Source: Thermoplasmatota archaeon (lineage in GTDB: Archaea; Thermoplasmatota; E2; JACPAO01; JAHFTW01). Taken from it: a stretch of DNA of 36,719 nt. The stretch's first letter is position 1. Every line of letters begins with the position of its first letter. The stretch lies in the NCBI GenBank assembly GCA_049619235.1, contig JBMZMP010000001.1, forward strand, positions 1-36,719, read 5' to 3'. The notes below the pieces were generated by a model, which was given only the letters and a program-made list of their open reading frames with translations, was not told the origin of the DNA and searched no databases. Positions 236 to 20,101 of the stretch are shown piece by piece. Made by a program: the position numbers and the translations under genes.

Positions 236-236
236 C

Positions 237-3515: not shown

Positions 3516-3560
3516 GCCCCCAACGAAATCCCTTTCCTTTGATTGAGTCCAATAACATGC

Positions 3561-4517: not shown

Positions 4518-4700
4518 CGCGACCGAGCGAGCCGTGCCAAGGGCAAATGTTCGACGGATACGAGGCGTGGGTCCGACGATGCTGGCCCGTGCTGATATGT
4601 TGATATGTTCAAGTGATACCCAACCTGTTCGGCGCGGCTTCGTCAAATCACGAACCGAAAACAATAGAATCCGTTGATTGACGAATCGTTGGTATCAACC

Positions 4701-4707
4701 TTTATAG
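4701..4707 (+). promoter_or_regulatory. TATA box (TTTATAG) of the megasynthase operon; first gene probably leaderless
   Basis: This is the only AT-rich heptamer in the spacer. Its centre lies about 28 nt upstream of ATG 4732, which fits archaeal TATA-to-TSS spacing with the TSS at or near the ATG. Confidence 0.45.
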
Positions 4708-4731
4708 CCCACCTCTGGAGAGCCCGTCACA

Positions 4732-6291
4732 ATGACGGACCCCATTGCCGCCCTTCGCGAACGCAAAGCCAAAGCCATGCAAGGCGGCGGCGCAGCACGC
4801 ATCGAAGCCCAGCACAAGAAAGGCAAATACACGGCGCGCGAACGCCTCGATTTGCTCCTTGACAAGGACTCCTTCGTGGAAATGGATCCATTCGTCCGCC
4901 ACCAAGCCAAACACTTCGGCATGGACAAAATGCAATTCGACGGCGACGGCGTCGTCACCGGGCACGGCACCGTCAAAGGCCGCCTCGTCTTCGTGTACAG
5001 TCAAGACTTCACCGTCCTTGGCGGCAGCCTCGGCAACGCCACCGGCAAAAAAATTGCCAAAGTCATCGAGCAAGCCATCAGTTGCGGAGCCCCCGTCATT
5101 GGGTTCAACGACTCCGGCGGCGCCCGCATCCAAGAAGGCGTCGCAAGCCTCGCCGGATACGGTGACATCTTCTTCAACAACGTCAAAGCAAGCGGCGTCA
5201 TCCCACAAATCTCCGTCATCGTGGGACCCTCCGCAGGCGGCGCCGTGTACAGCCCCGCCCTCACCGACTTCACCATCATGACCCAAGACACGAGCCACAT
5301 GTTCGTCACCGGTCCAGACGTGGTGAAAACCGTCACGGGGGAACAAGCCACGCAGGAAGAACTCGGCGGCGCAAGCGTCCACGAAGTCAAATCCGGCGTC
5401 GCCAGTTTCAGCGGCCTCGACGAGGACGAAACCATCGAAATGATTCGCACCCTCCTCGAATACCTCCCCAGCAACAACCTCGCAGACCTCCCAATTAAAG
5501 ACACCGGGGATGAACGGGGCCGCATGGACGAAGACATCCAAAACATCGTCCCACGCGAACCCAACAAACCCTACGACGTCCGGGAAGTGGTCAACCGCGT
5601 CATGGACCTCGGATCCTTCTTCGAAATCCAACCAAAATGGGCACAAAACATCGTCGTCGGCTTTGCCCGCCTCGACGGCATCCCCGTCGGCGTGGTTGCA
5701 AACCAACCCGCCGTCCTCGCAGGTGCCCTCGACATTGAAGCCAGCATCAAGGGCGCGAAATTCATTCGCTTCTGCGACTCCTTCAACATCCCACTCATCA
5801 CCATGGTGGACGTGCCCGGCTTCCTGCCCGGCATGGGCCAAGAACACGGCGGCATCATCCGAAACGGCGCCAAACTCCTGTACGCATACTGTGAAGCCAC
5901 CGTGCCCAAACTGCAAGTGGTGCTCCGCAAGTCCTACGGTGGCGCCTACATCGTCATGAGCAGCAAGCACGTAGGAAGCGACCTCAACCTCGCCTGGCCA
6001 GGCACCGAAATCGCCGTCATGGGAGCCGCCGGAGCCGTGGAAATCATCCACCGCCGGAAACTCCTCGCCCTCGCCGAAGAGGACCCGGAAGCAGCCGCGA
6101 AGATGAAAGCCGAATTCGAAGCCGAATACGCAGAGAAATTCAGCAACCCCTACGCCGCCGCGGAAATGGGTTGGGTGGACGACATCATCGAGCCACGGGA
6201 AACCCGCCCGCGCCTCATCGCTGCCCTCCTGCCGCTCCTCAACAAGCGCGAACAACGCCCCGCCAAGAAACACGGACTCACGCCACTTTAG
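4732..6291 (+). CDS. pccB: Acyl-CoA carboxylase carboxyltransferase subunit (PccB / 12S-type; acetyl/propionyl-CoA)
   Basis: 519 aa. Motifs seen: QHKKGKYTARERLDLLLD, FTVLGGSLG, GFNDSGGARIQEG, VIVGPSAGGAVYSPALTDF, ANQP..LAG.LD and GGAYIVM, which are typical of the carboxyltransferase beta subunit. Confidence 0.9.
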   Translation: MTDPIAALRERKAKAMQGGGAARIEAQHKKGKYTARERLDLLLDKDSFVEMDPFVRHQAKHFGMDKMQFDGDGVVTGHGTVKGRLVFVYSQDFTVLGGSLGNATGKKIAKVIEQAISCGAPVIGFNDSGGARIQEGVASLAGYGDIFFNNVKASGVIPQISVIVGPSAGGAVYSPALTDFTIMTQDTSHMFVTGPDVVKTVTGEQATQEELGGASVHEVKSGVASFSGLDEDETIEMIRTLLEYLPSNNLADLPIKDTGDERGRMDEDIQNIVPREPNKPYDVREVVNRVMDLGSFFEIQPKWAQNIVVGFARLDGIPVGVVANQPAVLAGALDIEASIKGAKFIRFCDSFNIPLITMVDVPGFLPGMGQEHGGIIRNGAKLLYAYCEATVPKLQVVLRKSYGGAYIVMSSKHVGSDLNLAWPGTEIAVMGAAGAVEIIHRRKLLALAEEDPEAAAKMKAEFEAEYAEKFSNPYAAAEMGWVDDIIEPRETRPRLIAALLPLLNKREQRPAKKHGLTPL

Positions 6292-6299
6292 GTGCCCCC

Positions 6300-9200
6300 A
6301 TGACCAAAGAACCCATTGCAATCATCGGCACCGGTTGCGTCCTCCCAGACGCCCCCGACGTTGCCACATTCTGGAACAACCTCCTCGCGGGCAAAAGCAG
6401 CATCACCGAGGTGCCCCGCGAACGCTGGGACCCCACCCTCTACCACTCCGACGACAAAACACTCCCCGACATGACGTACACCAAAATCGGTGGCTTCGTC
6501 GCAGACGACGCGTTCAACGGCATCGACTACCGCATGCCGCCAAAAGTCGTGGACCAAATCGACCCCTGCCAACGCTGGGCCCTCGCCGCAACCCGGCAAG
6601 CGTTCCAAAACGCAGGTTACGCAACCGGCCTCAAGGGCGACGAAGGGAAGGCATTCGACCGCGACCGCTGCGCAGTGATCGTCGGGAACGCAATGGGTGG
6701 CGAAGTGCAAAAAGCGGTCAGCAAGCGGGTGTACTGGGCCGAAGCAGAAGCAGCCATCCGAGCCGACTCCAAGTTCCAAACCCTTCCCCAGGAAGCCCAG
6801 GACGAAATCCTCTCGCGGGCACAAGCTGAATTCAAAGCCACAACCAACCCCATCACCGAAGACACCTTGCCCGGCCACCTCAGCAACGTGGTCGCCGGCC
6901 GCATCGCCAACGCCTTCGATTTGGGTGGCAAAAACTTCACCACGGACGCCGCTTGCGCAAGCAGCTTCGCAGCCCTCGACGCTGCGGTCAAAACACTGCG
7001 CGACCAAGACAGCGACCTCGTCATCTGGGGCGGCACCGACCGCTCCATGGATGTCACGGCCTACATCCAATTCAGCAAAATTGGGGCCCTCAGTCCCGAC
7101 GGCAGCCGCCCCTTCGATGAAGGCGCAAACGGCTTCGTCATGGGCGAAGGATGTGCCATGTTCCTCCTCAAGCGCCTCAGCGACGCGGAACGGGACGGCG
7201 ACAACATCATCGCCACCATTCGCGGCATCGGAAGCAGCAGCGACGGCAAAGGGAAAGGCATCACCGCCCCCAACCCCAGTGGCCAAGTGAAAGCAGTCGA
7301 ACGCGCCTACAAAGACGCCGGCGTGGACCCCGCCACCATTGGCTACATGGAAGCCCACGGCACCAGCACCCCCGTCGGTGACCCCGTGGAACTGGAATCC
7401 GCCAGCAAAGGCATCAGTGCCACCACCACGCAAACCATCGCCCCCGGCAGCATCCGCGTGGGGAGCGTCAAGAGCAACATCGGCCACCTCAAGGCAGCAG
7501 CCGGCGCCGCCGGCGTCCTGAAGGCCGCCCTGGCCCTCAAAGAAGGGGTCCTTCCGCCAAGCATCAACGTCAAGACCCTCAACCCCCGCATTGACTGGGA
7601 AAACAGCGTCTTCAAAGTGCAAACCACGCAAGAAGGCTGGGTCCAAGAAGGCCCACGACGCGCCGCCGTCAGCAGCTTCGGCTTTGGCGGCACCAACTTC
7701 CACGTGGTCCTCGAGCAACACGTCCCCGGCGCATGGCAAGCCCCCGTGGCAACGCAAGCGGTCGCCGAAACCCGCACCGAGTTGGACCTTGCAGGGTTTC
7801 AAGCAGGCTTCAACGCCAGCCTCGAACCAGAAGCGGTCGTCCTAAGCTCCGCACAAGCCGCAAGCCTCGACCTCCAAACCACAAACTTCGCGGAAACTGG
7901 CACCGGCGCACGTCTCCGGGACCAACTGCACCCGCTCACCAAAGAAGGGGTTGCTGCAAACGAACGAGTCGCATTCCACGTGGCCGACGTGGCTGAGATT
8001 CCAAAGAAACTTGGACTCGCCCAGAAAGCCATGGAAAACCCCGCCGCAGCCCGCCTTGCCTTCAACCAAGGCGTCTTCCTCGGACGCGGTGCGCCAGAAG
8101 GCAAAGTGGCGTTCCTGTTCCCCGGACAAGGCACCCAGTACGTCAACATGGGCCGCGACCTCGCCGAAAAATACGAGATCGTCCGCAAAACCTTCGAAGA
8201 AGCCGATGAGGCACTCTTCGACGACATCGGCGGCAAACTCACTGACATTCTCTGGCCCACACCCAACACGGAAGAAAACCAAAAGGCCAGCAACGAGAAA
8301 CTCAAACTCACCGAATACACGCAACCCGCGGTTCTCGCAATGGACCTTGCCTGCCTGCGCCTGTTGCAAAGCTGGGGCATCAAGCCCGACATGGTCGCCG
8401 GGCACAGCCTCGGCGAATACGGTGCCCTCATGGCAGCCGGTGTGTTGAGCCTCAAAGACGCCCTACATGCAGTCGCTGCCCGCGGTCGCGAAATGGCAAA
8501 CGTGGACCTCCCGGACCTTGGCAAAATGGCCAGCATCAGCGCCGACTGGCACGACGTGCAAGGGTTCCTGGACGGCGTGGACGGCTACGTCATCCCCGCC
8601 AACAAGAACTGCCCAAGCCAAACCGTCATCGCAGGCAGCACCGAAGGCGTCGAGAACGCCGTCGCCAAAATCAGTGAAGCCGGCATCCAAACCATGTTCC
8701 TGCCGGTGAGCGCCGCGTTCCACAGTGAAATCGTCGCCCCCGCCAGCGGACCGCTTCGCAAAGTGCTCGGGCGCCTCGACGTCCAATCCCCGAAAGTGCC
8801 CGTCATCACCAACGTTGGCGCTCGCTTGTACGAAGACGACCCGGAATGGATTCGGGACAACCTCGCCGTCCAAGTTGCAAGCCCCGTTGACTGGATTGAC
8901 ACCATTGAGAAAATGTACGCCGAGGGCGTTCGGTACTTCATCGAAGTGGGCCCCAAGCGCGCGCTCAGCGGCTTCGTGATGGACATCCTGAAAGACAAAC
9001 AAGACGTCCGCGCCATGTTCGCCAACCACCCCAAGAAAGGTGGCATTCAATCCTTGAACGAAATGTACGCCTTCCTCGGCGCCAGCGGATTTGCACCCCA
9101 AGTGCACGCCCTCGATGACGCGGACGTATACACCAAATCGTTCCTCGACCCAGTGGCTGCATTCACGAAGGAAGTGGCCGTTGCTGCTCAGCCCCCCATC

Positions 9201-12200
9201 ACGGCACCCGCAAGCAACGACCCCCGAACCGAAGTCATAGCAAATGCCCTCACCGAATTGAACGCCACGCTCGCCTCCATGAACGGAGTCACCGCTGCGC
9301 CGCAAGCCGCGACTGGCACCGTGGACAGCCAACTGCAAGCCAAACTGGACGCGTACGGCATTTGCCTCGACGACATCACCATCAGCGGCGCAGCCGTCGG
9401 ACTCCCCGGCGGACAACTGTTTGGCGAAGACAACTGGGACCGCATCCTACGAGGCGACAACCTCATCAGCGAAGTGCCCGAGCCGCACCGAGCCGGCATG
9501 GTGGACCGAAACATCGTTCGCCTCGTCAAAGGCAGCGACGGACAAGCCACGTTCCAATCCATCCAAGACATGGCGCAAGTGATTCACCTCGCTGGGCGCC
9601 GCGGCGGATTCGACCTCGCGGAATGGGGCATCGACATGGCCGACGTGTTGGACAAAACCAGCCAGTACGCCATGGCAGCCGGACTCGAAACACTGCGCGA
9701 CGCAGGCATTCCCCTGCAACGCACGTACATGCAAACCAGCACCGGCAGCTTCCTTCCAAAAGAATGGAAACTCCCCGAGCCCCTGCGTGACGGCACCGGC
9801 ATCATCTTCGCCAGTGCATTCCCCGGGTACGACAACCTCATTGACGAAATCAGCCGCCACCTCGCGGACAAATACGCCGGTGCCAGCCTCGACCGGCTGC
9901 AAGCGTTGTACGAAGAACTCGGAGGCGTCGTCTCGGACGACGAGCAAAAAGAGCGACTGACGAAGCTGTTCGACGAAGAATTCGAACGCCTGCAAGCAGT
10001 CCTCCCCGATCAAGGAGCAGCGCGGTACGAATTCAACCGAAAATTCCTCTTCACCGTCCTCAGCATGGGGCACAGCCAACTGGCACAACTCATTGGAGCC
10101 CGTGGCCCCAACACGCAAGTGAACGCCGCCTGCGCCAGCACCACGCAAGCCATCGGCATCGCCGAAGACTGGATTCGCACCGGCCGCGCCCGCCGCGTCC
10201 TCGTGGTTGGCGCAGATGACGCCACCAGCGACAACATGCTCCCATGGATTGGCAGCGGGTTCCTCGCAAGCGGAGCCGCCACCACCAAACGCAACGTGGC
10301 CGACGCCGCATTGCCCTTCGACGCCCGCCGCCACGGCATGATCATCGGCATGGGAGCCGTCGGCGTCCTCGTGGAAGCCGCTCCCGAAGTGGAAGCCCGC
10401 GGCATGCGACCCATTGCCAACTTGCTCGCCACCAAGGTCAGCAACTCCGCATTCCACGGCAGCCGCCTCGACATCGAACACATCGCCAGCGAAATGCAAG
10501 CGTTGGTCGGCAAGGCCTTGGCCACCCGACGCGCCACTGGCCGAGCGGCCAACGGCGAAACCGCGGAGAGCCTCGCGGCATCCACGGTCTTCATGTCCCA
10601 CGAAACCTACACGCCCGCTCGCGGCGGAAGCGCCGCAGCAGAAATCCACGCACTCCGTGCCACCTTCGGCGCCGGCGCAGACAGGGTCGTCATCGCCAAC
10701 ACCAAGGGCTTCACCGGCCACCCGCAAGGCGCGGGCATCGAAGACGCAGTCGTCCTCAAGTGTCTGCAACGAGGCCAAGTGCCACCCATTCCGAACCTCA
10801 AGGAACCGGACGCGGAACTCGGCAACCTCAACCTCAGCAAAGGCGGCAACTACGACATTCGGTACGGACTACGTCTTGCCGCTGGATTTGGAAGCCAAGT
10901 GGCCATGACCTTCACGGAATTGGTCGCCCGCGAGAACGAACGCTTCGCCAACCAAGCCCAATACGATGCCTGGCTCGCAAGCGTCAGCGGCATGCCAAGC
11001 GCCGTCGTGGAAACCGTGCATCGTACGCTCCGCATCGTGGACCAAGGCGCCCCCGAACGGGTGGCCCCTGCCGCAAAGCCGGAACCAGTTGCGGTGCAAA
11101 CACCAACGACGCCGGCCGTCCCCGCCGTGGACGCGCTTCCGACGGTCATCGACCTTGTGGCCAAGAAAACGGGATACCCCGTGGAAATGCTGGAACCCGA
11201 CCTCGACCTTGAAGCGGACCTTGGCATTGACACCGTGAAGCAAGCAGAACTGTTTGGCGAACTGCGCGAACATTTCGGTGTACCCTTGAGTGACGACTTG
11301 AAACTCAGTGACTACAACACGCTCCGCAAAGTGGCTGATTACATGGGCGGCGGAAACGGTGCCAGCGCACAGCCTGCGGCTGCCCCTGCCACCACCACTT
11401 CTACCGCCCCCAATGTGACGGTTCCAACGCCTCAACCTGTTGACCCCGCCGCGTCCGCGCCTTCTGCGGATGTGCTTGCAACCGTCACCGCCATGATTGC
11501 CGAAAAGACCGGCTACCCACCAGAAATGCTCGAGCCCGCACTTGATCTCGAAGCGGACCTCGGCATTGACACGGTCAAGCAAGCCGAGCTCTTTGGCGAA
11601 CTGCGCGAACACTTCGGCATTCCCCTCAGCGACGACCTCAAGCTTAGCGACTACAACACCTTGGAGAAAGTGGCAGCGTACATGGGAGGCGGCAATGCCG
11701 CACCGACACCCGCAACGCCTCCTCCCGCCGCAACGCCCACCCTCGCCCCAATTGTTGGGGCACAAAGCCCCGCGGCGCCAGCTGGGGACGTTCTTGCCAA
11801 AGTGACCGCCGTCGTAGCCGAAAAAACCGGCTACCCCGCGGAAATGCTCGAAGCGGACCTGGACCTCGAAGCGGACCTGGGCATTGACACCGTCAAGCAA
11901 GCGGAACTCTTCGGGGAACTGCGGGAAATGTTCGGCGTCTCCCTCAGCGAGGACTTGAGCCTCGCCGATTACAACACGCTCCGCAAAGTCGCATCCTACA
12001 TGTCCGGTGGTGCCGGCACCGAAACGGCCGCAAGTGCTCCCCCCACTCCCGCCGTGGCGCCTGCTCAACCAGGCGCGGAAACGGCTCCGGCGGCGGATGC
12101 GGGCGACGTGCTTGCCAAAGTCACCGCCGTGGTGGCTGAGAAAACCGGCTACCCCGTCGAGATGCTCGAACCTGCATTGGACCTTGAAGCGGATCTCGGC

Positions 12201-15200
12201 ATTGACACGGTCAAACAAGCAGAGCTCTTTGGCGAACTCCGGGAAATGTTCGGAGTCCCCCTGAGCGAAGACCTGAGCCTCGCCGACTACAACACTCTCG
12301 AAAAAGTGGCGGGCTACATGGCCGCCGGTGGAGCCTCCGCTACAAACACTGCCACCGAAGCGGCCGTTGAACAAGCAACCGAGGCTGCACCTTCCGGCAT
12401 CCAACGGTTGGTCCCCTTCGCCCGCCCACAAGCATGCGAAGAAGACAACCACCTGCCACAAGGACAACTCCTCGTGGTGGGCGACGCGGACACGGAATTC
12501 ATGGACGCCTGGAAGGCCGCCGGGTTCAAACCCACCATGCACCACGCGGACGCACCCGTGGGCATCCTGTGCCTCGCAACCCGCCCCGGCGAAAACGCCC
12601 ACACGCGGGCAGCGGCACTCTTCGAAGCCGCCAAAGCCAACCCCAACGCCTTCGTGGTCGTTGCCACCGCACAAGACGGAAGCCACGGGCTCCGCAAACC
12701 TCGTGACGCCGGCATGGCCGCAGTTTCAGGGCTTGGAAAAGCATTGAACAAGGAACTCCAAGGGCTCGTCAAGGTCATCGACGTGGACCCCGCCGACCGC
12801 GACGGACCCAAGCGCGTGGTGCAAGAAGCCATGCACGGCGGATTGCGCTGCGAAGTGTGCTTCGACCGCAACGGCAACCGCTGCGTCGTTGAAGTGGCTC
12901 CGGAAAGCCAACAAGGCACCCCCGACGTCGCCGGCAAAACGCTCGTCGTCAGCGGAGGCGCACAAGGCATCACCGCTGAACTGCTACTCCAACTCGCGCC
13001 GCAACACCCGAACCTCGTACTCCTTGGCCGCACACCGCTCCCACGGGAAGTGGCAGACTGGGCCAACTGGACCGACGAGCAATGGCGCGCCGAAGAACTC
13101 CGCGTCCTGGAAGAACTGAAAGCGAGTGGCGAAAAAGCCACCCCTGTGATGGTCAAGAAGCGCGTGGACCCCATGCGAAAAGCCGTGGAAGTGCAACGAA
13201 ACATCACCTCCATGCAAGCAGCCGGAGCCACCGTTTCCTACGCCGCAGTGGACGTCACGGACGCCGCCGGCGTCGCACAAGTGGTGTCCGAAGCCCGAGA
13301 CAAATTCGGCTCCATTGACGGCGTCATTCACGCCGCCGGCATGGAAATCAGCAAATTCCTCGCCGACAAACCACGGGAACAATTCGACCTCGTGTTTGGC
13401 ATCAAACACGATGGTATGAACGCCCTCGTGGCCGCCACGGAACAGGACGACCTGTCCATCCTCGCGGCCTTCGGAAGCGTTGCCGGACGGTTTGGAAACA
13501 TCGGCCAAGTGGACTACTCCGCCGCCAACGAATACCTCTGCAAAGAAGTCAAGCGCGTTGCACAAGCCCGCGGCATCCCCGCGGCATTCACCATCGCGTG
13601 GGGCCCCTGGGGGGAAGTGGGCATGGCAACCCGCGGCGGCATCATGACAGTCCTCAAGGAAAGCGGCGTCACACCCATCCCGACTGCAGACGGCATTGCG
13701 GCGTTCATGAACGAACTCGGCACGCCCGGGGTTCGCGAAAGCGTCGTGTGCGGAGAGATTGGAGGACTGGACGCGGACGGCCAAGTGGTCGCACACGTCT
13801 GGGACCCAGCCGTTGCGGAAGCAGAAAGCTGGCTGCAAACCGCCCCCGATCGGTTCAGGCTCCTGGACTCCATCGAAGCCATCAACACGGAACGCATCGT
13901 TGCCCGGTTGGTCATGGACCGCGTCAAGGACCCATACCTGATGGACCACGCCATTGACGGCGTGCCCCTCCTGCCCGGCGTCTTCGGTCTTGAAGCGTTT
14001 GCAGAAGCAAGCCGCCTCCTGGTCCCAGAAGACCTCGACTTCATCGGCGCCGAAGCGGTGCGATTTGCCGCGCCACTCAAGCAACACAAAGACACCCCCG
14101 TGACCGCGCGCATCGAAGCCCTGGTCTTGGAGCGAGGCGAAGAGACAAAGGTGCGATGCCAACTGACAAGCCAATTCGTCGGCCCAGACGGCCGCCCACT
14201 CGGCGAACCCAAACTGCACTTCGAAGCGGTGACCCGCTTCGGCACTGGACGCACCATGCGCACCGGAGACGTTCCCGTCTCGGATCGAAGCCGCACCAAC
14301 GTCTACCCGCCATTCTTCCACGGACCCAGCTTCCAAGTGCTCCCCGCAGCCGGGCCGCTTGGCGAGGAATCCATTGGCGAATTTGTCTTCCCCGAAGCTC
14401 CCTGCTTCGCCGACGGCAACGCCACGTTCCTCAGCCACCCCCTCGTGACGGAGGCCCTGTTCCAACTCTGCGGTCTCCGCACCATGGACGTGGACCAACG
14501 CATGAGCCTCCCCGCCGCCATCGAACGCATCGACGTATTCCCCGGCGCCACGGGACACGGCCGGCTCTGGTCCGCCTACAAGGGCAAGGAAGATTTGCAC
14601 CAATTCGACGCGGCCGCCTGCACCGATGACGGCACAGTCCTCATCCGAATGGTGGGCTACCAAATGATTGAAACTGGCCCCATCGCAGACAGCGAACCCG
14701 CGGAGCCAGAAGGTGCAACGGATCCGGCCCCAGCGCCGTCCGAACCGGCCCTACCCGAACCACCGGCCCACGTGCATCTACCAGACGTGGAAGGACTCAT
14801 GTTCCAGTGGGAGCCGGTCAAAGACGCACCGCTCAACGACTGGTTCTCCGCCGCGGAAAAGGAAACCCACGCCGGATTCAAAACCAGCAAGCGCGCCGCC
14901 GAATGGCGCGCCGGCCGCATCGCCGCCAAACGCGCCGTCGCAGCCAGCACAGGGGCCCCACACAACGAAATCGAACTCCGAGCCAACGACGCAGGCGCAC
15001 CCAGTCTTTACGTCCGTGGGAAACCAAGCCCTGTCCGCGTCAGCATCACGCACCGCGACGGCGTTGCCATCGCCGCCTTTGGAAACGACGCCATCGGCAT
15101 CGACTTGGAAACCGTCGAACCCCGCAGCGAACCGTTCTGGGAACAAGCCTTCGGAGCCGACGAACGACGACACCTTGGTGCCATGGCCAACAAGGACGTG

Positions 15201-15413
15201 GCCGCAGCGTGTGCCTGGGCCGCGAAGGAAGCCTGCCTGAAGCGGGTTGGAACCGGCCTCGATTGTGCCCTGCACGACTTGGTGGTTCGCCCCGAAGGCG
15301 GCGGCGCGCACGTCTCTGGACCGTTCGGCCAATGGTACGTCCGCTTCTGGGACCTTGATGGCCGCGTTCTCGCCGTGACCACGCCCCAATTTGATGTGCA
15401 GGTGAACGCATAG
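6300..15413 (+). CDS. Iterative type I polyketide / PUFA-synthase-like megasynthase, 3037 aa: KS-AT-KS-ACPx4-KR-DH-PPTase
   Basis: ORF 6171-15413 was trimmed to ATG 6300 (MTKEPIAIIGTGCVLPDA...), 8 nt after the pccB stop and preceded by AGGTG (6290-6294). The domain motifs are listed in the sub-features below. The stop TAG (15411-15413) overlaps the GTG start of bioY. Confidence 0.9.
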   Translation: MTKEPIAIIGTGCVLPDAPDVATFWNNLLAGKSSITEVPRERWDPTLYHSDDKTLPDMTYTKIGGFVADDAFNGIDYRMPPKVVDQIDPCQRWALAATRQAFQNAGYATGLKGDEGKAFDRDRCAVIVGNAMGGEVQKAVSKRVYWAEAEAAIRADSKFQTLPQEAQDEILSRAQAEFKATTNPITEDTLPGHLSNVVAGRIANAFDLGGKNFTTDAACASSFAALDAAVKTLRDQDSDLVIWGGTDRSMDVTAYIQFSKIGALSPDGSRPFDEGANGFVMGEGCAMFLLKRLSDAERDGDNIIATIRGIGSSSDGKGKGITAPNPSGQVKAVERAYKDAGVDPATIGYMEAHGTSTPVGDPVELESASKGISATTTQTIAPGSIRVGSVKSNIGHLKAAAGAAGVLKAALALKEGVLPPSINVKTLNPRIDWENSVFKVQTTQEGWVQEGPRRAAVSSFGFGGTNFHVVLEQHVPGAWQAPVATQAVAETRTELDLAGFQAGFNASLEPEAVVLSSAQAASLDLQTTNFAETGTGARLRDQLHPLTKEGVAANERVAFHVADVAEIPKKLGLAQKAMENPAAARLAFNQGVFLGRGAPEGKVAFLFPGQGTQYVNMGRDLAEKYEIVRKTFEEADEALFDDIGGKLTDILWPTPNTEENQKASNEKLKLTEYTQPAVLAMDLACLRLLQSWGIKPDMVAGHSLGEYGALMAAGVLSLKDALHAVAARGREMANVDLPDLGKMASISADWHDVQGFLDGVDGYVIPANKNCPSQTVIAGSTEGVENAVAKISEAGIQTMFLPVSAAFHSEIVAPASGPLRKVLGRLDVQSPKVPVITNVGARLYEDDPEWIRDNLAVQVASPVDWIDTIEKMYAEGVRYFIEVGPKRALSGFVMDILKDKQDVRAMFANHPKKGGIQSLNEMYAFLGASGFAPQVHALDDADVYTKSFLDPVAAFTKEVAVAAQPPITAPASNDPRTEVIANALTELNATLASMNGVTAAPQAATGTVDSQLQAKLDAYGICLDDITISGAAVGLPGGQLFGEDNWDRILRGDNLISEVPEPHRAGMVDRNIVRLVKGSDGQATFQSIQDMAQVIHLAGRRGGFDLAEWGIDMADVLDKTSQYAMAAGLETLRDAGIPLQRTYMQTSTGSFLPKEWKLPEPLRDGTGIIFASAFPGYDNLIDEISRHLADKYAGASLDRLQALYEELGGVVSDDEQKERLTKLFDEEFERLQAVLPDQGAARYEFNRKFLFTVLSMGHSQLAQLIGARGPNTQVNAACASTTQAIGIAEDWIRTGRARRVLVVGADDATSDNMLPWIGSGFLASGAATTKRNVADAALPFDARRHGMIIGMGAVGVLVEAAPEVEARGMRPIANLLATKVSNSAFHGSRLDIEHIASEMQALVGKALATRRATGRAANGETAESLAASTVFMSHETYTPARGGSAAAEIHALRATFGAGADRVVIANTKGFTGHPQGAGIEDAVVLKCLQRGQVPPIPNLKEPDAELGNLNLSKGGNYDIRYGLRLAAGFGSQVAMTFTELVARENERFANQAQYDAWLASVSGMPSAVVETVHRTLRIVDQGAPERVAPAAKPEPVAVQTPTTPAVPAVDALPTVIDLVAKKTGYPVEMLEPDLDLEADLGIDTVKQAELFGELREHFGVPLSDDLKLSDYNTLRKVADYMGGGNGASAQPAAAPATTTSTAPNVTVPTPQPVDPAASAPSADVLATVTAMIAEKTGYPPEMLEPALDLEADLGIDTVKQAELFGELREHFGIPLSDDLKLSDYNTLEKVAAYMGGGNAAPTPATPPPAATPTLAPIVGAQSPAAPAGDVLAKVTAVVAEKTGYPAEMLEADLDLEADLGIDTVKQAELFGELREMFGVSLSEDLSLADYNTLRKVASYMSGGAGTETAASAPPTPAVAPAQPGAETAPAADAGDVLAKVTAVVAEKTGYPVEMLEPALDLEADLGIDTVKQAELFGELREMFGVPLSEDLSLADYNTLEKVAGYMAAGGASATNTATEAAVEQATEAAPSGIQRLVPFARPQACEEDNHLPQGQLLVVGDADTEFMDAWKAAGFKPTMHHADAPVGILCLATRPGENAHTRAAALFEAAKANPNAFVVVATAQDGSHGLRKPRDAGMAAVSGLGKALNKELQGLVKVIDVDPADRDGPKRVVQEAMHGGLRCEVCFDRNGNRCVVEVAPESQQGTPDVAGKTLVVSGGAQGITAELLLQLAPQHPNLVLLGRTPLPREVADWANWTDEQWRAEELRVLEELKASGEKATPVMVKKRVDPMRKAVEVQRNITSMQAAGATVSYAAVDVTDAAGVAQVVSEARDKFGSIDGVIHAAGMEISKFLADKPREQFDLVFGIKHDGMNALVAATEQDDLSILAAFGSVAGRFGNIGQVDYSAANEYLCKEVKRVAQARGIPAAFTIAWGPWGEVGMATRGGIMTVLKESGVTPIPTADGIAAFMNELGTPGVRESVVCGEIGGLDADGQVVAHVWDPAVAEAESWLQTAPDRFRLLDSIEAINTERIVARLVMDRVKDPYLMDHAIDGVPLLPGVFGLEAFAEASRLLVPEDLDFIGAEAVRFAAPLKQHKDTPVTARIEALVLERGEETKVRCQLTSQFVGPDGRPLGEPKLHFEAVTRFGTGRTMRTGDVPVSDRSRTNVYPPFFHGPSFQVLPAAGPLGEESIGEFVFPEAPCFADGNATFLSHPLVTEALFQLCGLRTMDVDQRMSLPAAIERIDVFPGATGHGRLWSAYKGKEDLHQFDAAACTDDGTVLIRMVGYQMIETGPIADSEPAEPEGATDPAPAPSEPALPEPPAHVHLPDVEGLMFQWEPVKDAPLNDWFSAAEKETHAGFKTSKRAAEWRAGRIAAKRAVAASTGAPHNEIELRANDAGAPSLYVRGKPSPVRVSITHRDGVAIAAFGNDAIGIDLETVEPRSEPFWEQAFGADERRHLGAMANKDVAAACAWAAKEACLKRVGTGLDCALHDLVVRPEGGGAHVSGPFGQWYVRFWDLDGRVLAVTTPQFDVQVNA
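6309..7722 (+). other. Domain: ketosynthase 1 (approximate bounds)
   Basis: TTDAACASSFAALD (Cys codon 6954-6956), EAHGTSTPVGDP, KSNIGHLKAAAGAAG and FGFGGTNFHVVLEQH give an intact Cys-His-His triad. Confidence 0.85.
8103..9030 (+). other. Domain: acyltransferase (malonyl-type; approximate bounds)
   Basis: Motifs seen: FLFPGQGTQYVNMG, VAGHSLGEYGALMAAG (Ser codon 8406-8408), TEYTQPAVLA and PVSAAFHSEIV. Confidence 0.8.
9375..10925 (+). other. Domain: divergent second ketosynthase with retained active-site Cys (approximate bounds)
   Basis: ITISGAAVGLPGG at the N-terminus, NAACASTTQAIGIAEDW (Cys codon 10131-10133), MSHETYTP (His), NTKGFTGHPQGAGIED (His) and GFGSQVAMTF. A long helical insertion (RHLADKYAG...ARYEFNRKF) precedes the Cys. 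Confidence 0.7.
11133..12320 (+). repeat. Four tandem in-frame ACP-like carrier domains (11133-11345, 11466-11684, 11784-12002, 12102-12320) separated by Ala/Pro/Thr-rich linkers
   Basis: Each unit reads (V/L)A(K/T)VTA.(V/I)AEKTGYP.EMLE..LDLEADLGIDTVKQAELFGELRE.FG..LS.DL.L.DYNTL.KVA.YM. Unit spacing is 339, 318 and 318 nt. The position normally held by the phosphopantetheinyl-Ser is Thr in all four units (codons 11232-11234 ACC, 11571-11573 ACG, 11889-11891 ACC, 12207-12209 ACG). Confidence 0.85.
12400..13730 (+). other. Domain: ketoreductase with N-terminal structural subdomain (approximate bounds)
   Basis: Motifs seen: KTLVVSGGAQGITAELLLQL (Rossmann fold), DGVIHAAGM and FGSVAGRFGNIGQVDYSAANEYL (Tyr codon 13515-13517). 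Confidence 0.8.
13850..14670 (+). other. Domain: PKS-type double-hotdog dehydratase (approximate bounds)
   Basis: LMDHAIDGVPLLPGV matches HxxxGxxxxP (His codon 13947-13949). FFHGPSFQ resembles YGPxF, and HPLVTEALFQL resembles D/ExxxQ. Confidence 0.7.
14800..15410 (+). other. Domain: C-terminal Sfp/EntD-like 4'-phosphopantetheinyl transferase (approximate bounds)
   Basis: Motifs seen: EWRAGRIAAKRAV, VRVSITHRDGVAIAAF, AIGIDLETVE (Asp codon 15102-15104) and AWAAKEACLKRVG (Lys-Glu codons 15225-15230). These are the metal-binding and W/FxxKEAxxK motifs of PPTases. Confidence 0.7.
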
Positions 15414-16213
15414 TGGAGTACCGATTCGGAAACCTCGAGCAAACGCTCACCGGCTGGCCCACCCGGCTCCTCGCAAGCGCAGGCTTCGCAGGCATCCTCT
15501 CCCTCCTCGCCCTCATCAGTTTCCCCCTCCCCTGGACCCCGGTCCCCTTCTCCATGATGCCCCTGGGACTTCTCCTCGCAGGCGCATACCAGCGCCCGCT
15601 GTGGGGCTTCCTCTCCGTCGCCATGTACCTCGTGGCCGCAGGCATCGGCGCACCGATCTTTGCGGACGGGGAATCTGGCTGGAGCTGGTTCCTCGGCGCA
15701 AGCGGCGGCTACCTGTTCGGTTTCCTCCTCGTTTCGCCGCTCGTCGGTTGGTACATGCGGGAACGACGCGGCATGCTCCCCACCAAGTGGGTCGCCTTTG
15801 TCATCAGCGCGTTCACGCTCGCCGTCCTCGGTGGCCTCGGCGCCATCATTTGGATGACCACCACCGGAAGCAGCATCAGCAGCCTCGACGGAGACACGCA
15901 AAACTGGAACATGGGCCGTAGCACCCTCTGGGTTCTCCTGTTCCTCATCGTCGCCATGACCGCCCTGACGCTCACGTTCCTGCGCCGATACCGGCAACAA
16001 AGCCAAGAAGCGCTGAACCTGTTTCTTGTCATGATGGGCGCCATCATTGTGCTCCACACCTGCGGCGTCCTGGTCCTCTGGATGGCCACCTCCCTCACAT
16101 TCATGGAGGCATTGTTGCTTGGAAGCCTCGTCTTCTTACCCTTCGATGTACTCAAAAGCGGCCTCGCCGTCGCCCTCTCTCTGCCCTTCGTCCCCCCGGT
16201 GAACCATGACTGA
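15413..16213 (+). CDS. bioY: Biotin transporter BioY (solitary S-component)
   Basis: The GTG start shares one base with the megasynthase stop. Sequence PVPFSMMPLGLLLAGAYQRPLWGFLSVAMYLVAAGIGAPIFADG...GASGGYLFGFLL...FLPFDVLKSGLAVAL matches the BioY pattern. At 266 aa it is longer than usual, with a central insertion. Confidence 0.75.
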   Translation: MEYRFGNLEQTLTGWPTRLLASAGFAGILSLLALISFPLPWTPVPFSMMPLGLLLAGAYQRPLWGFLSVAMYLVAAGIGAPIFADGESGWSWFLGASGGYLFGFLLVSPLVGWYMRERRGMLPTKWVAFVISAFTLAVLGGLGAIIWMTTTGSSISSLDGDTQNWNMGRSTLWVLLFLIVAMTALTLTFLRRYRQQSQEALNLFLVMMGAIIVLHTCGVLVLWMATSLTFMEALLLGSLVFLPFDVLKSGLAVALSLPFVPPVNHD

Positions 16214-17774
16214 CATCAACAAAATTCTCGTTGCCAACCGCGGCGAAATCGCCCTTCGCGTAATGCGAACCGCCCGCGAACTCGGAATTGCAACCGTCGC
16301 CGTCCACAGCCCCGTGGACGCCAAGGCTGCCCACGTGCGCTTCGCCGACGAAGCCGTGGATCTTGGCGGCGACGCCGCATCCGAGAACTACCTCAACATC
16401 GACAAATTGGTCGAAGTTTGCAGCGACCACGGCGTGGACGCCGTGCACCCCGGCTACGGTTTCCTCAGCGAACGAGACGACTTCGTGGACGCACTTAGCA
16501 AAGCCAACGTCACATTCATCGGCCCACCCGCAAGCGCCATCCGAATCCTTGGGGACAAAGTGGCCAGCAAGGAAGCGGCCCGCAAGGCCGGCGTGCCCGT
16601 GGTTCCCGGCCTTGACAAATTCATCAACACCGTGGACGAGGCGAAGGAAGTGGCGGAGCTCACCGGTTACCCGCTCATCATCAAAGCCGCATTCGGTGGC
16701 GGCGGCATGGGCATGCTCGTGGTGGAGAAAGAGGAAGACCTGGAAGCTTCCCTCATCGCCACGCAACGGCAAGCCAAAGCCGCCTTTGGCCGCGGCGAAG
16801 TGTTCATTGAGAAATTCATTGGGCGCCCCCGTCACATCGAATTCCAAATGGTTGCTGACCAACACGGCCACGCCGTGCACTTCGGGGAACGGGAATGCAG
16901 CATCCAACGCCGCCACCAGAAACTCATCGAAGAAGCGCCAAGCCCCATTGTCACGGAAGAGGAACGGCAAGAAGTTGGTGGCAGCGTCGCCAAATTGCTC
17001 ATCGACGTGGGCTACACCAACGCGGGCACCGCTGAATTCCTGTACGAAGATGGCAACTTCTTCTTCAACGAAGTCAACACCCGCCTGCAAGTGGAACACC
17101 CTGTCACGGAGCAGGTGTACGGCATGGACCTCGTGGCGGAGCAAATCCGCATCGCCCGCGGCGAGGAACTCGGCTACGACCAAGCATGGGTGAATGCCCG
17201 CAAGCGCGGCTGGAGCATCGAGTGCCGCATCAACGCCGAGGACCCCGCGCAGAACTTCATGCCCACCCCAAGCCTCGTCAAGCGACACAACCCCCCCATG
17301 GGCAGCGGCATCCGCTTGGACACGTTCCTCTACCCCGGATTCCAAGTGCCAGCCATTTACGACTCCATGGTCGCCAAACTGATCACCACCGGCAGCGACC
17401 GCGCCGAAGCCATTCGCAAAATGGAACGCGCCCTCGACGAATACGACCTCGGAGACATGACCACCAACAAGGAACTCCACGCGCTCCTCATGCGCAACGA
17501 ACATTTCCGCGCCGGTGACATGACCACGAAGTTCCTCGACGAACACGGCATCATTGACCAATACCTCGGCAACCAAGCCGGCGCAAGCGACGCAGCAAAG
17601 CGCCGCCTCGCTGCCATCGCCGCGGTGCTGGCCGAACAACCCGGCGGCATCGACGCCATGGTTGCAAAGAACTACGGGTTCAAGGCTGGCGTGGGCGTGG
17701 ACGAACACGGCCGCAGAAAGCTCAACGCATGGGGCCAACGGTCTCGCGGCGAAAGCAACGGAAGGTGGGCCTAA
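16206..17774 (+). CDS. accC: Biotin carboxylase subunit of acyl-CoA carboxylase
   Basis: 522 aa. Motifs seen: ILVANRGEIALRVMRTARELGI, HPGYGFLSE, YPLIIKAAFGGGGMGM, HIEFQMVADQHG, ERECSIQRRHQKLIEE and EVNTRLQVEHPVTE. The start overlaps the bioY stop by 8 nt, and GGTGA (16198-16202) lies upstream. Confidence 0.92.
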   Translation: MTDINKILVANRGEIALRVMRTARELGIATVAVHSPVDAKAAHVRFADEAVDLGGDAASENYLNIDKLVEVCSDHGVDAVHPGYGFLSERDDFVDALSKANVTFIGPPASAIRILGDKVASKEAARKAGVPVVPGLDKFINTVDEAKEVAELTGYPLIIKAAFGGGGMGMLVVEKEEDLEASLIATQRQAKAAFGRGEVFIEKFIGRPRHIEFQMVADQHGHAVHFGERECSIQRRHQKLIEEAPSPIVTEEERQEVGGSVAKLLIDVGYTNAGTAEFLYEDGNFFFNEVNTRLQVEHPVTEQVYGMDLVAEQIRIARGEELGYDQAWVNARKRGWSIECRINAEDPAQNFMPTPSLVKRHNPPMGSGIRLDTFLYPGFQVPAIYDSMVAKLITTGSDRAEAIRKMERALDEYDLGDMTTNKELHALLMRNEHFRAGDMTTKFLDEHGIIDQYLGNQAGASDAAKRRLAAIAAVLAEQPGGIDAMVAKNYGFKAGVGVDEHGRRKLNAWGQRSRGESNGRWA

Positions 17775-18277
17775 TGCGGTACGCATTCCGACTGGGGCAA
17801 CACACCCACAAATTGACGCGCCAAGAACGCGCCGAGGGGCCCCTGTACAAGATTGAAGAATCCGAGTACGAACCCGCTGTGGAAGCCAAAGGCAACGGCA
17901 GCTACCGCGTGGTCGTGGACGATCAAGTCTTCGAGTTCTCCCTAAAAGACGGTGTCCTCTACGAAGGCGCCAGCCCACTGGACTTGGAAATTAGCCGCGC
18001 CAAGCCGGAACTGATTCGCGCCGGCGGCAAAGGCCGCAAAGGCGACGGACGCATCAAACCCCCGATGCCGGGCAAGATTGTGGAAGTGCCAGTCAAGGAA
18101 GGTGACGAAGTCCAAGAGGGCCAAGTGGTCATCATCTTGGAAGCCATGAAGATGCAAAACGACATCAAGGCGCCCTTCGGAGGCATCGTCCAAAAGGTGC
18201 ACGTGCAGGAAGGTTCGAACGTGGAAGCAACCACCGTCATGGTAGACATTGCTCCCCACGCGGAGCCCGAAGCATGA
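17774..18277 (+). CDS. accB: Biotin carboxyl carrier protein (biotinyl domain)
   Basis: ORF 17729-18277 was trimmed to ATG 17774, which overlaps the accC stop (TAATG). The C-terminus PMPGKIVEVPVKEGDEVQEGQVVIILEAMKMQNDIKAPFGGIVQKVHV carries the EAMKM biotinylation motif. Confidence 0.8.
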   Translation: MRYAFRLGQHTHKLTRQERAEGPLYKIEESEYEPAVEAKGNGSYRVVVDDQVFEFSLKDGVLYEGASPLDLEISRAKPELIRAGGKGRKGDGRIKPPMPGKIVEVPVKEGDEVQEGQVVIILEAMKMQNDIKAPFGGIVQKVHVQEGSNVEATTVMVDIAPHAEPEA

Positions 18278-19038
18278 GTGTGGACGTCGCCATCGAAGGC
18301 CGCGTGGCCACCATCACCATCAACCGCCCCGAGGCGCTCAACGCCCTCAACAGTGCAACCCTCGACGCCATCGGCGCGGCGGCGCTGGATCTACGGGACA
18401 AAGTGGACGGCATTCTTCTCACCGGTGCCGGCAAGGCCTTCGTGGCCGGTGCCGACATCGCCGAAATGAAGGACTATGGCCAGGAAGAAGCCGAAGCCTT
18501 CAGCCGGCGCGGCCAAGAGGCCTTCCAAAATCTCTCCGAATTCCCCGGCCCCGTGGTCGTTGCCATCAACGGATTCGCCCTCGGCGGCGGACTGGAATTG
18601 GCCCTCTCGGGGGACATCCTCGTTGCAAGCAACCGCGCCAAACTAGGTCTCCCTGAAACCACGCTTGCAGTGGTCCCTGGCTTCGGCGGAACGCAGCGCT
18701 TGCCCCGCCGCGTGGGCCCAGGCAATGCCAAGAAACTCTTGTTCACGGGCGGCATGATTGGCGCCGAAGAGGCGCTCCGTATGGGCCTCGTGGACGAAGT
18801 GGTGGAACCAGATGAACTGCTGGAAACCTGCCAAGGAATTTTGCAAAAGGCCCTCGCCAATGGACCCCTTGCGGTTCGGCAAGTGAAGCGCCTCGTGGAC
18901 GTTGGCTCGGACATGGAGCTCCTCGACGCCATCGACATGGAAGCAGACGCATTCGGCGACATCTTCACCACTGAGGATCAAAAGGAAGGAATGGAAGCGT
19001 TCCTTTCCAAGCGGAAGCCGGATTTCACTGGCAATTAG
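18274..19038 (+). CDS. Enoyl-CoA hydratase (crotonase family)
   Basis: 254 aa. Motifs seen: ITINRPEALNAL, LTGAGKAFVAGADI, INGFALGGGLELAL and LGLPETTLAVVPGFGGTQRL, with both catalytic Glu positions present. ATGA overlap with accB. Confidence 0.88.
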   Translation: MSVDVAIEGRVATITINRPEALNALNSATLDAIGAAALDLRDKVDGILLTGAGKAFVAGADIAEMKDYGQEEAEAFSRRGQEAFQNLSEFPGPVVVAINGFALGGGLELALSGDILVASNRAKLGLPETTLAVVPGFGGTQRLPRRVGPGNAKKLLFTGGMIGAEEALRMGLVDEVVEPDELLETCQGILQKALANGPLAVRQVKRLVDVGSDMELLDAIDMEADAFGDIFTTEDQKEGMEAFLSKRKPDFTGN

Positions 19039-19055
19039 AACGCCGTTGATTGCGG

Positions 19056-19070
19056 GATTGCGTAGCAATC
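19056..19070. terminator. Short hairpin (GATTGC-gta-GCAATC) between convergent genes
   Basis: Perfect 6-bp stem in the 43-nt spacer between the crotonase stop (19038) and the Zn-ribbon gene stop (19082). A T4 run follows at 19085-19088. This is a weak structure. Confidence 0.25.
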
Positions 19071-19081
19071 GTGCTTGCGGC

Positions 19082-19621
19082 CTATTTTCCGAATAAGCTC
19101 GGCAAGTGAATGAGGTACGCCCCGTCTTTGTGAACGACGATGGGGTTCTTCTCAAGGAGCCCCTTCACGTCGATGTCGTACTCGCCGGTTTCCCCAATGG
19201 TCACAGTGTCGGGCTTGTCGTCCATTTCCGTTTCGGACAAGATGGCTTCCCGGGCGCGCCTTGCGGCTTCAATGCGGGCGGGGCTGTTCACGGGCTCGTC
19301 TTCGATGCGGGGTCCGCGGGACTTTTGTTCTTGTTGGACTTGCTTCATGATTTTGCGCAAGTCCTTGGGCTTCAATTCCGCCCATCCGTCGCCGTCCGCT
19401 TCCAGTTCCTTCGCTGTTTCGGGTGCCGTGTTTTGCAGGAGGTCTGCGACCACTTTGCGGAGGTCGTTTTGTGCTTGGCCTTGGATGCGTTCCCGTTCTT
19501 CCTGGCTCACTTCCGTGGCGCTGTAAAAGAACCGGGTTCCCTTGCATTCGGGGCAGCCGCTCAGGAGCGCGCTGCTGCCTTCTTCAAAGGAAAATCCACA
19601 AGACAAGCACTGATGAGGCAC
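19082..19621 (-). CDS. Zn-ribbon protein (DUF2072/COG3364-like), conserved archaeal
   Basis: The N-terminus MPHQCLSCGFSFEEGSSALLSGCPECKGTRFFY has CxxC...CxxC. An acidic, charged middle region follows. It is linked to the DUF2073 and GTPase genes. Confidence 0.6.
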   Translation of the reverse strand: MPHQCLSCGFSFEEGSSALLSGCPECKGTRFFYSATEVSQEERERIQGQAQNDLRKVVADLLQNTAPETAKELEADGDGWAELKPKDLRKIMKQVQQEQKSRGPRIEDEPVNSPARIEAARRAREAILSETEMDDKPDTVTIGETGEYDIDVKGLLEKNPIVVHKDGAYLIHLPSLFGK

Positions 19622-19719
19622 TATGCATCACTCCGCGACGCATCGCACCTCATCATCCGACAACCTGCGGTTGCCTGGAGAAAAGCACGCTTCGCGTCCG
19701 TGTCTCCTTGACGCGGCAT

Positions 19720-20097: not shown

Positions 20098-20101
20098 GGT
20101 T

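Follow-up and report, generated by a model that had tools for sequence, protein, structure and literature searches.

A predicted Type R-like PfaA-family synthase operon with its own malonyl-CoA supply genes in Thermoplasmatota archaea

Type R is the name of a secondary lipid synthase that consists of one pfaA homolog with the domain order ketosynthase (KS), malonyl acyltransferase (MAT), chain-length factor (CLF), three to six acyl carrier proteins (ACP) and ketoreductase (KR), followed by a phosphopantetheinyl transferase (PPTase) gene (Shulse & Allen 2011, PLoS One 6:e20146, PMC3098273). It has been reported in Acidobacteria, Elusimicrobia and Chloroflexi, namely in Koribacter, Solibacter, Elusimicrobium and Roseiflexus; an acetyl-CoA carboxylase (ACC) gene intervenes in Koribacter, and the product is uncharacterised (PMC3098273). 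The same authors described secondary lipid pathways in two domains of life, and archaea are unmentioned in their survey (PMC3098273). Here, a synthase of this kind is considered in a Thermoplasmatota archaeon, on a stretch of 36,719 nucleotides of contig JBMZMP010000001.1 (assembly GCA_049619235.1) that is called the window throughout. Six tightly coupled, co-directional genes at 4732-19038 on the forward strand appear to form one operon, and the explanation that fits best, with a probability of about 0.75, is that it is a native, vertically inherited Thermoplasmatota operon that encodes a Type R-like synthase of the PfaA family and a malonyl-CoA supply for it.

The synthase gene (6300-15413, forward strand, as are all features of the operon) encodes an iterative type I enzyme of 3037 residues, which was assigned to the PfaA family, and as Type R-like, with Pfam and NCBIfam. 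Pfam searches of the whole protein and of its segments give the order KS1-AT-KS2-ACPx4-KR-DH-PPTase, where AT is an acyltransferase and DH a dehydratase. The protein scores 1067.1 bits against the NCBIfam model TIGR02813 (omega_3_PfaA) and passes its curated cutoff of 1010.1 bits, in agreement with an earlier note on this DNA that had taken it for an iterative synthase of the polyunsaturated fatty acid (PUFA) type. As in PfaA, tandem carriers lie in one polypeptide between KS-AT/KS2 on one side and KR and a DH of the polyketide synthase (PKS) type on the other. KS1 (residues 4-475, 6309-7724) has Cys218 in DAACASS and the two histidines in EAHGTST and NIGHLK. The AT (residues 605-904, 8112-9011; Pfam, and 235 bits to NCBIfam fabD) carries GHSLG, Arg and AAFH, motifs that point to a malonyl extender. 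Downstream of the four PP-binding carrier domains (residues 1615-1681, 1728-1794, 1834-1900 and 1940-2006 in Pfam segments, 11142-12317) come a KR (residues 2214-2438, 12939-13613) with Ser, Tyr and Asn in SVAGRFGN...DYSAAN, a PKS-type DH (residues 2529-2793, 13884-14678) whose HAIDGVPLLP corresponds to HxxxGxxxxP, and a fused Sfp-type PPTase (residues 2863-3018, 14886-15353; Pfam 4PPT_N and ACPS) with GIDLE and WAAKEA, for which Sfp is the best solved structure. In an alignment with four archaeal homologs and one from Chloroflexota, the motifs of KS1, AT, KS2, KR, DH and PPTase are all intact.

The second ketosynthase (residues ~1025-1536, 9372-10907) occupies the position of the Type R CLF. 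It contains Cys in NAACAST (Cys1277), His in SHETYT, and Lys and His in NTKGFTGH; it aligns best with FabF (2gqd/1j3n), and the Cys, both His and the Lys match the catalytic residues. The same catalytic set is kept in archaeal and bacterial homologs. Judged by these residues, KS2 is probably a complete condensing enzyme and not a classical CLF, and since it keeps Cys/His/His (and Lys), the synthase would have two potentially active ketosynthases.

Several properties are shared with the bacterial Type R synthases: a single pfaA homolog, a second KS-like domain with Cys/His/His in the CLF slot, four ACPs (within the range of three to six), a KR followed by DH, a dedicated PPTase and linkage to ACC genes, with ~45-50% identity to the closest bacteria in KS1, AT, KS2 and the ACPs. 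A bacterial homolog search with the first 1000 residues as query found KS-AT matches of 44-51% identity in the Type R phyla and also in Actinomycetota and Myxococcota, with the same second KS, and the nearest bacterial relatives (Elusimicrobia, Acidobacteria, Chloroflexi and others) have the same architecture; the nearest non-archaeal relatives are thus bacterial, as had been anticipated. In a Chloroflexota locus (L019) the gene order is acyl-CoA dehydrogenase (ACAD) - KS-AT-KS2-ACP - ACP-KR-DH - PPTase - CT - BC - BCCP, where CT is the carboxyltransferase, BC the biotin carboxylase and BCCP the biotin carboxyl carrier protein, and an Anaerolineae locus (L018) has an equivalent arrangement. 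The archaeal operon differs from Type R in its host and promoter signals, in a PPTase fused at the C-terminus that is a separate gene in L018 and L019, in the displacement of CT to the upstream end, in the insertion of a biotin transporter gene, bioY (not present in L019, the only bacterial cassette examined that is complete), in a BC that is not that of the cassette, and in the lack of the upstream acyl-CoA dehydrogenase gene.

The complete copies of that ACAD-family gene encode 479-564 aa. The gene is found just 5' of the bacterial Type R synthases and 5' of BC in a Kariarchaeaceae locus (L018 7564-9195, L019 1-1063, L020 8296-9990 and L026 8450-9889), and in the Mycobacterium locus L020 it is immediately 5' of the synthase. 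It is absent from the Thermoplasmatota operons. The ACAD-family gene could be a missing reductase or desaturase partner.

The operon also encodes what appears to be a complete biotin-dependent acyl-CoA carboxylase. CT (4732-6291, 519 aa) is of the PccB/AccD5 type (Pfam Carboxyl_trans, 2.8e-194), BC (16206-17774, 522 aa) was recognized by Pfam and by accC-type models of NCBIfam, and BCCP (17774-18277, 167 aa; Pfam) has an EAMKM motif with Lys126, the AMKM part being residues 124-127. The best NCBIfam match of CT is the mmdA/PccB subfamily, under its cutoff, and the protein reaches ~650 bits against the Thermotoga and Streptomyces PccB structures. Its identity is 74-85% to other Thermoplasmatota loci, 62.5% to L025 (described below) and 56-57% to the bacterial cassettes. 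All BC homologs with 66-90% identity belong to Thermoplasmatota, and below them, at ~50-56%, archaeal PycA-type proteins are mixed with bacterial AccC proteins; the BCs of the bacterial Type R cassettes are only 37-43% identical. Since BC and CT differ in this way in their identity to the cassette proteins, the ACC part was probably not co-transferred as a simple block. The three separate subunits and the PccB-type CT are also found in the archaeal acetyl/propionyl-CoA carboxylases (AccC-AccB-PccB) of Sulfolobales and Thaumarchaeota, and the identity of BC to other archaeal BC/PycA proteins is 50-56%; here, in contrast to those enzymes, the genes are joined to a megasynthase and a biotin transporter and not to a CO2-fixation pathway.

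BioY (15413-16213, 266 aa; Pfam BioY, 7.9e-28) is found at the same position in L001, L002, L003, L023 and L024, and among the loci examined, BioY together with this gene order occurs only in archaea. The last gene (18274-19038, 254 aa; Pfam ECH_1) encodes a short-chain enoyl-CoA hydratase (crotonase, ECH). It overlaps the BCCP gene here, is present in L003 and L024, and is absent from L002 and L023. The closest structure is the clostridial crotonase 5z7r, onto which both catalytic Glu residues align; a role in polyketide beta-branching or decarboxylation was considered and rejected on the strength of this alignment with a standard crotonase. ECH is probably an ordinary CoA-ester hydratase that is loosely tied to the cluster.

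The coupling of the six genes is close throughout. CT and the synthase are separated by 8 nt, the synthase and BioY genes meet in TAG/GTG with one base in common (15411-15415), BioY and BC in ATGACTGA (16206-16213), BC and BCCP in TAATG (17772-17776), and BCCP and ECH in ATGA (18274-18277), and these tight junctions are kept in the homologous archaeal loci. GGTG motifs are situated 5-6 nt 5' of internal starts (6291-6294, 16198-16201 and 17764-17767). The listing of open reading frames (ORFs) permits a longer synthase start, a TTG at 6171 that would overlap the CT gene (6171-6299), but the start is likely the ATG at 6300 because homolog alignments begin there and GGTG is located 5 nt upstream. 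A TATA-like box, TTTATAG (4701-4707), 24 nt before the CT ATG, is a candidate archaeal promoter of a leaderless first gene. A (T/A)(T/A)ATAG box ~24 nt before the CT start is present in at least six other archaeal loci; TATA-like boxes with the same spacing were seen in L002, L005, L008, L016 and L021, and variants in L004 and L010. The recurrence of the box across archaeal loci gives the leaderless reading comparative support; in L018 and L019, which are bacterial, its place is taken by GGAGGA Shine-Dalgarno sites. All of the overlaps, the 8-nt gap, the GGTG motifs and the box had been pointed out in the earlier note and can be seen in the sequence, and the six ORFs that it listed were confirmed to the base by the ORF listing and Pfam.

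The surroundings of the operon are archaeal. The upstream flank encodes, by Pfam, SufBD, SufS, NifU, an FeS-assembly protein and an archaeal type IV pilin (Pilin_N, 3543-4517). Directly downstream of the operon, on the reverse strand, is the OapC/OapB/GTPase trio (19082-20740; Pfam), origin-associated proteins in Haloferax, and further downstream follow an M20 peptidase, an alanine racemase, arginine biosynthesis genes, an AbrB(MazE)-PhoU protein and a Pst phosphate transporter. Pfam therefore upheld the archaeal identity proposed for the Pilin_N, OapC/OapB/GTPase and AbrB-PhoU genes. The composition shows no break at the operon edges, a point that had been raised as a check: GC is even along the window at ~0.60, the tetranucleotide correlation of the operon with either flank is 0.93-0.95, and the codon usage (RSCU) of the synthase correlates with that of the flank genes at 0.96, the two flank halves correlating with each other at 0.93. 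The composition of the operon is fully ameliorated.

Syntenic copies, which had also been proposed as a check, are numerous. In a scan with one genome per GTDB species, 16 loci were found, 15 in Thermoplasmatota/Thermoplasmata metagenome-assembled genomes (MAGs) and one in a Deltaproteobacteria MAG; the complete synthases among the former are 59-67% identical over their full length and the Deltaproteobacteria one 46%, and two of the Thermoplasmatota loci are on contigs of 351 and 341 kb. Searches by tblastn with all window proteins revealed the recurrent order Suf genes - CT - synthase - BioY - BC - BCCP (- ECH), and the operon is also found on an ENA contig and on JGI contigs of 264 kb and 673 kb, the BC of the latter being recorded in 39 contig blocks. 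Altogether the same operon, often beside the same Suf cluster, was seen on more than 15 Thermoplasmatota contigs of up to 673 kb. CT and the synthase are not adjacent in L023. The sample names suggest sand, sediment and groundwater. Because the composition is continuous, the synteny recurs and the flanks are archaeal, chimerism and recent transfer were set aside; the host is archaeal, and in the best explanation the operon would be native and vertically inherited in the Thermoplasmatota lineage.

Some further details of these loci can be added. The Suf cluster at 165-3455 of the window is syntenic with the synthase operon in L003, L005, L010, L015, L016, L021 and L024; it is upstream of the operon in most loci, and inverted and downstream in L024. 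The gene that separates Suf from CT differs, being the pilin in the window and a cupredoxin in L021. A divergent Thermoplasmatota copy of ~50% identity (L022; GCA_041658815.1, 3044-10185) has the context CT - SDR - synthase, SDR being a short-chain dehydrogenase/reductase, and its synthase appears to start with an additional PP-binding domain. An exact 10-mer, CCGTTGATTG, occurs twice only in the window, at 4671-4680 (21 nt upstream of the TATA-like box) and 19043-19052 (5 nt past the ECH stop), and brackets the operon; with one mismatch allowed it occurs 7 times against a shuffled expectation of 3.8 +/- 1.9, which is not significant, and it was rejected as a meaningful bracket. In a scan of the window for bacterial promoters and terminators, sigma-70 and terminator signals were no higher than background, and no Rfam families or tRNAs were found in the window.

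Each of the four carrier domains reads LGIDTVKQAE, and the residue at the position of the phosphopantetheine-bearing Ser is a threonine (Thr1645, Thr1758, Thr1864 and Thr1970; codons 11232-11234, 11571-11573, 11889-11891 and 12207-12209 by motif search). Instead of the conserved Ser in GxDS, GIDT is present in all four domains, and the Thr aligns onto the phosphopantetheine Ser of the PigH and AcpM structures. This Thr recurs in every archaeal locus, in L018 and L019 on the bacterial side (the loci with it include L001-L013), and in 36 of the 37 motifs among the database matches; a Ser was seen in two homologs only, P0010 (Deltaproteobacteria) and P0267 (Heimdallarchaeota). The homolog alignment contains no other Ser conserved within the carrier domain. 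The simplest reading is that the Thr would serve as the phosphopantetheine acceptor, and the constant presence of an adjacent or fused PPTase may then mean that housekeeping PPTases would not serve a Thr site. No paper on threonine-linked phosphopantetheine was found in the literature searched, which was a limited library.

Two other families have to be compared with the synthase. The PfaA of the marine bacterial and thraustochytrid PUFA synthases (pfaABCDE) shares with it KS-MAT, tandem ACPs, KR and a PKS-type DH, and we take the carrier sequence to be very like that of PfaA ACPs (motif LGIDxxK). It differs from pfaABCDE in the internal KS2, in the carrier Thr in place of Ser and in the fusion of the PPTase, the equivalent of PfaE. 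The partners PfaB (AT), PfaC (KS-CLF and FabA-type DH) and PfaD (enoyl reductase, ER) were found neither in the window nor in the 10-kb flanks of L002, L003, L023 and L024. A canonical PUFA synthase was rejected on the absence of these partner genes at the loci, and since they are absent there, EPA or DHA would not be made by the known route. In the case of HglE-type synthases, neither the partners HglC, HglD and HglG nor a reductive release domain was found in the window or in related loci.

From these family assignments, a pathway can be proposed. Biotin would be imported by BioY, BCCP would be carboxylated by BC at its AMKM motif, and the PccB-type CT would convert acetyl-CoA to malonyl-CoA. 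The PPTase domain would turn the four carriers into their holo form in cis, apparently on Thr, after which the AT, with its malonyl-type motifs, would load malonyl units. KS1 and KS2 would carry out repeated decarboxylative condensations, and KR and the PKS-type DH would convert each beta-keto group to an enoyl. Reduction in trans, off-loading of the chain, or both would fall to some enzyme outside the operon. By Pfam, neither an ER nor a thioesterase or release domain was found in the synthase or the operon, and no conserved ER, thioesterase or acyltransferase gene was found near the archaeal loci examined (the window and the 10-kb flanks of L002, L003, L023 and L024). The flanks contain only candidates that are not conserved, namely a variable ECH, one ACAD (L003), one SDR (L024) and a distant 4HBT gene (L023). 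Since the synthase has no ER, no FabA-type isomerising DH and no thioesterase, a long unsaturated acyl chain (polyenoic or hydroxy-enoic) is the most likely product, and as judged from the gene content it would most likely be a specialized ('secondary') lipid.

An alternative is that the enzyme is a primary fatty-acid synthase (FAS) that makes ordinary saturated or mono-unsaturated fatty acids for a 'mixed membrane', with the ER encoded elsewhere. This is unlikely overall, but it is the likeliest of the competing explanations. In its favor, the operon is conserved and ameliorated among housekeeping genes across a broad clade, the dedicated malonyl-CoA supply and the tandem carriers would suit a high flux, and the ACAD-family gene adjacent to the bacterial synthases could serve as a reductase. 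In addition, some Thermoplasmatota (Poseidoniales) are without the G1P-backbone enzyme and encode a G3P dehydrogenase (PMC6461757). However, the related loci have a GC content of 63-67%, above the maximum of 62.7% reported for Poseidoniales, so a link to this lipid puzzle is not established. The lack of a conserved ER, thioesterase or acyltransferase at the archaeal loci examined also speaks against it, as does the fact that the bacterial Type R carriers have FAS II as well (PMC3098273), so that a role as primary FAS is not known for the family.

A synthase of the enediyne type (PKSE-like), whose conjugated polyene would become a pigment or hydrocarbon, is very improbable, although the earlier note had held this alternative open. 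PKSEs have the order KS-AT-single ACP-KR-DH-PPTase in ~1900 aa, no second KS, and a conserved cassette with a thioesterase. The likeness to SgcE, CalE8 and DynE8 is real in that the enzyme is an iterative type I synthase without an ER, with a KR-DH-PPTase end and activation in cis, and a polyene is the default product of KS, KR and DH cycles. The synthase nevertheless passes the PfaA model, has four tandem carriers and a second KS in 3037 aa, and yields no enediyne structures among its best 60 solved-structure matches, while neither the enediyne cassette genes nor the hot-dog thioesterase were found in the window. The separate PPTase genes of L018 and L019 indicate that the fusion is secondary. 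The PKSE identity was rejected on the model score, the architecture and the lack of cassette genes in the window.

Equally improbable is the view that the carboxylase genes serve central metabolism (anaplerosis, propionate or CO2 fixation) and that the six genes are not one functional unit. The nearest matches of CT are beta subunits of propionyl-CoA carboxylase, BC shares ~50-56% identity with PycA-type archaeal enzymes, and CT stands apart from the synthase in L023; against this, overlaps or gaps of at most 8 nt extend across the whole operon and are conserved, both of the inspected Thermoplasmata BC homologs at 67-69% identity sit in a synthase operon, and the synthase is linked with ACC independently in Chloroflexota and on a Heimdall-like contig, in another gene order. 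An assembly or binning artefact that joined bacterial DNA to archaeal sequence has next to no probability, for although bacteria are the nearest relatives outside archaea and a related contig (P0155) bears the label 'bacterium', archaeal genes lie on both sides within one contig without a compositional break, the same junctions recur independently in many samples and assemblers (NCBI, JGI, ENA and Logan) on contigs of several hundred kb, and an archaeal promoter motif replaces the bacterial Shine-Dalgarno site.

The preferred explanation, a native archaeal operon for a Type R-like synthase, has to contend with several points. All of the activities are predicted from sequence, and no ER, thioesterase or release partner was found at the archaeal loci examined. 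CT is nearest to propionyl-CoA carboxylases, although the AT motifs favor malonyl. We know of no precedent for Thr at the carrier attachment site, and Ser-to-Thr mutants of ordinary ACPs are poor substrates; should the Thr be unable to accept phosphopantetheine, the carriers would not work, a reading disfavored by the family-wide conservation of the Thr and by the Ser/Thr interchange. Membership in Type R is based on the architecture and on the taxonomy of the neighbors in a neighbor-joining tree of 116 KS1-AT sequences, among which the named Type R reference strains are not included. In this tree, the core archaeal clade has a bootstrap support of 100/100, but once the divergent copies (47-51% identity) are counted in, the clade that unites the Thermoplasmatota sequences reaches only 34/100, and the sister bacteria (Elusimicrobia, Myxococcota and Deltaproteobacteria) are weakly attached.

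The comparison with bacteria also changes how the origin of the operon can be seen. The synthase would descend from an ancestor common to the bacterial Type R cassettes through an old transfer, after which CT would have moved to the first position, the PPTase become fused and BioY inserted. The proposal that the operon had been acquired from bacteria is too simple if it is read as the transfer of one block, given the low BC identity (37-43%), the higher CT identity (56-57%) and the ameliorated composition. Since a PPTase and malonyl-CoA supply genes (CT, BC and BCCP) are already properties of the bacterial cassettes L018 and L019, they were not added to make up for what archaea lack, contrary to the suggestion that the operon carries what such a host lacks. 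Nor can the operon be called self-contained, as it had been, with no ER, thioesterase or release domain in it and none conserved nearby.

Related synthases extend beyond Thermoplasmatota. A search of 1.84 billion representatives with the DH-PPTase segment found many proteins of ~2900-3600 aa that match DH and PPTase in one C-terminal stretch. A PPTase fusion peculiar to this archaeal clade had been considered, and was rejected since numerous ~3000-aa proteins of other lineages have it too. One of the proteins found (P0267; MCY3414055.1, 3234 aa, on a 158-kb contig) is annotated as Candidatus Heimdallarchaeota and has the identical KS-AT-KS2-ACPn-KR-DH-PPTase architecture. Another (P0265, 3275 aa) is encoded on a 1.13-Mb JGI contig of 33% GC (L025 10001-21476) in the order BC - BCCP - CT - synthase, and the BC encoded there shares 66% identity with the BC of a locus in a Ca. 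Kariarchaeaceae MAG (L026 8450-12722). This second locus has the order ACAD - BC - BCCP beside DUF5591/PUA, Roadblock/LC7 and gyrase genes and contains archaeal markers; its contig ends past BCCP, and we infer that the cluster continues into a synthase. Taken together, a related cluster in Asgard archaea (Heimdall-like) is probable. Several ~3000-3400-aa representatives (P0276, P0277, P0280, P0287 and P0295) have an extra carrier motif before KS2.

The existence of such genes in archaea is already on record. NCBI names the archaeal synthase proteins 'type I polyketide synthase', type I PKS (T1PKS) clusters are the second-largest class of biosynthetic gene clusters (BGCs) in marine archaeal genomes (PMC10304266), a retracted study listed T1PKS and HglE-KS clusters in Poseidoniaceae, and cold-seep archaea were reported to 'encode PKSs', while the Marine Group II genome papers do not mention such a synthase. 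No paper that analyzes the archaeal synthase was found besides BGC censuses, in a library that was limited, so that a description may exist, and no characterised close homolog with a known product was found. The claim that the pathway is undescribed can therefore be kept only in part: no analysis of it was found, yet the family is described in bacteria, the archaeal proteins are labelled and T1PKS are counted in surveys. What would be new is the recognition of a Type R-like PfaA-family synthase in archaeal hosts and of its rearranged operon.

To our knowledge, ACP, holo-ACP synthase and the FAS/PKS machinery are generally regarded as missing from archaea. The synthase, of a kind formerly catalogued as bacterial or eukaryotic, would be a stable, conserved chromosomal part of an archaeal lineage with archaeal-type signals. 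The boldest possibility, which must be regarded as doubtful at present, is that two archaeal phyla, Thermoplasmatota and Heimdallarchaeia (among Asgard archaea the nearest to eukaryotes), use a carrier-dependent PfaA-type megasynthase that bears phosphopantetheine on Thr to build long acyl chains de novo, and that these chains enter cellular lipids. If true, this would contradict the ACP-independent view of archaeal acyl-chain synthesis and put an actual enzyme behind 'mixed' membranes that span the lipid divide. Similarly, a near-universal carrier Thr with a dedicated PPTase, if real, would extend a textbook post-translational modification by a new variant. These findings may be of interest both to archaeal lipid biologists and to carrier-protein enzymologists: the operon offers a clonable enzyme with which to ask if fatty-acyl or polyene lipids are made in some archaea, which bears on the lipid divide and on the origins of eukaryotes, and it may help to reveal what the entire, uncharacterised Type R family makes.

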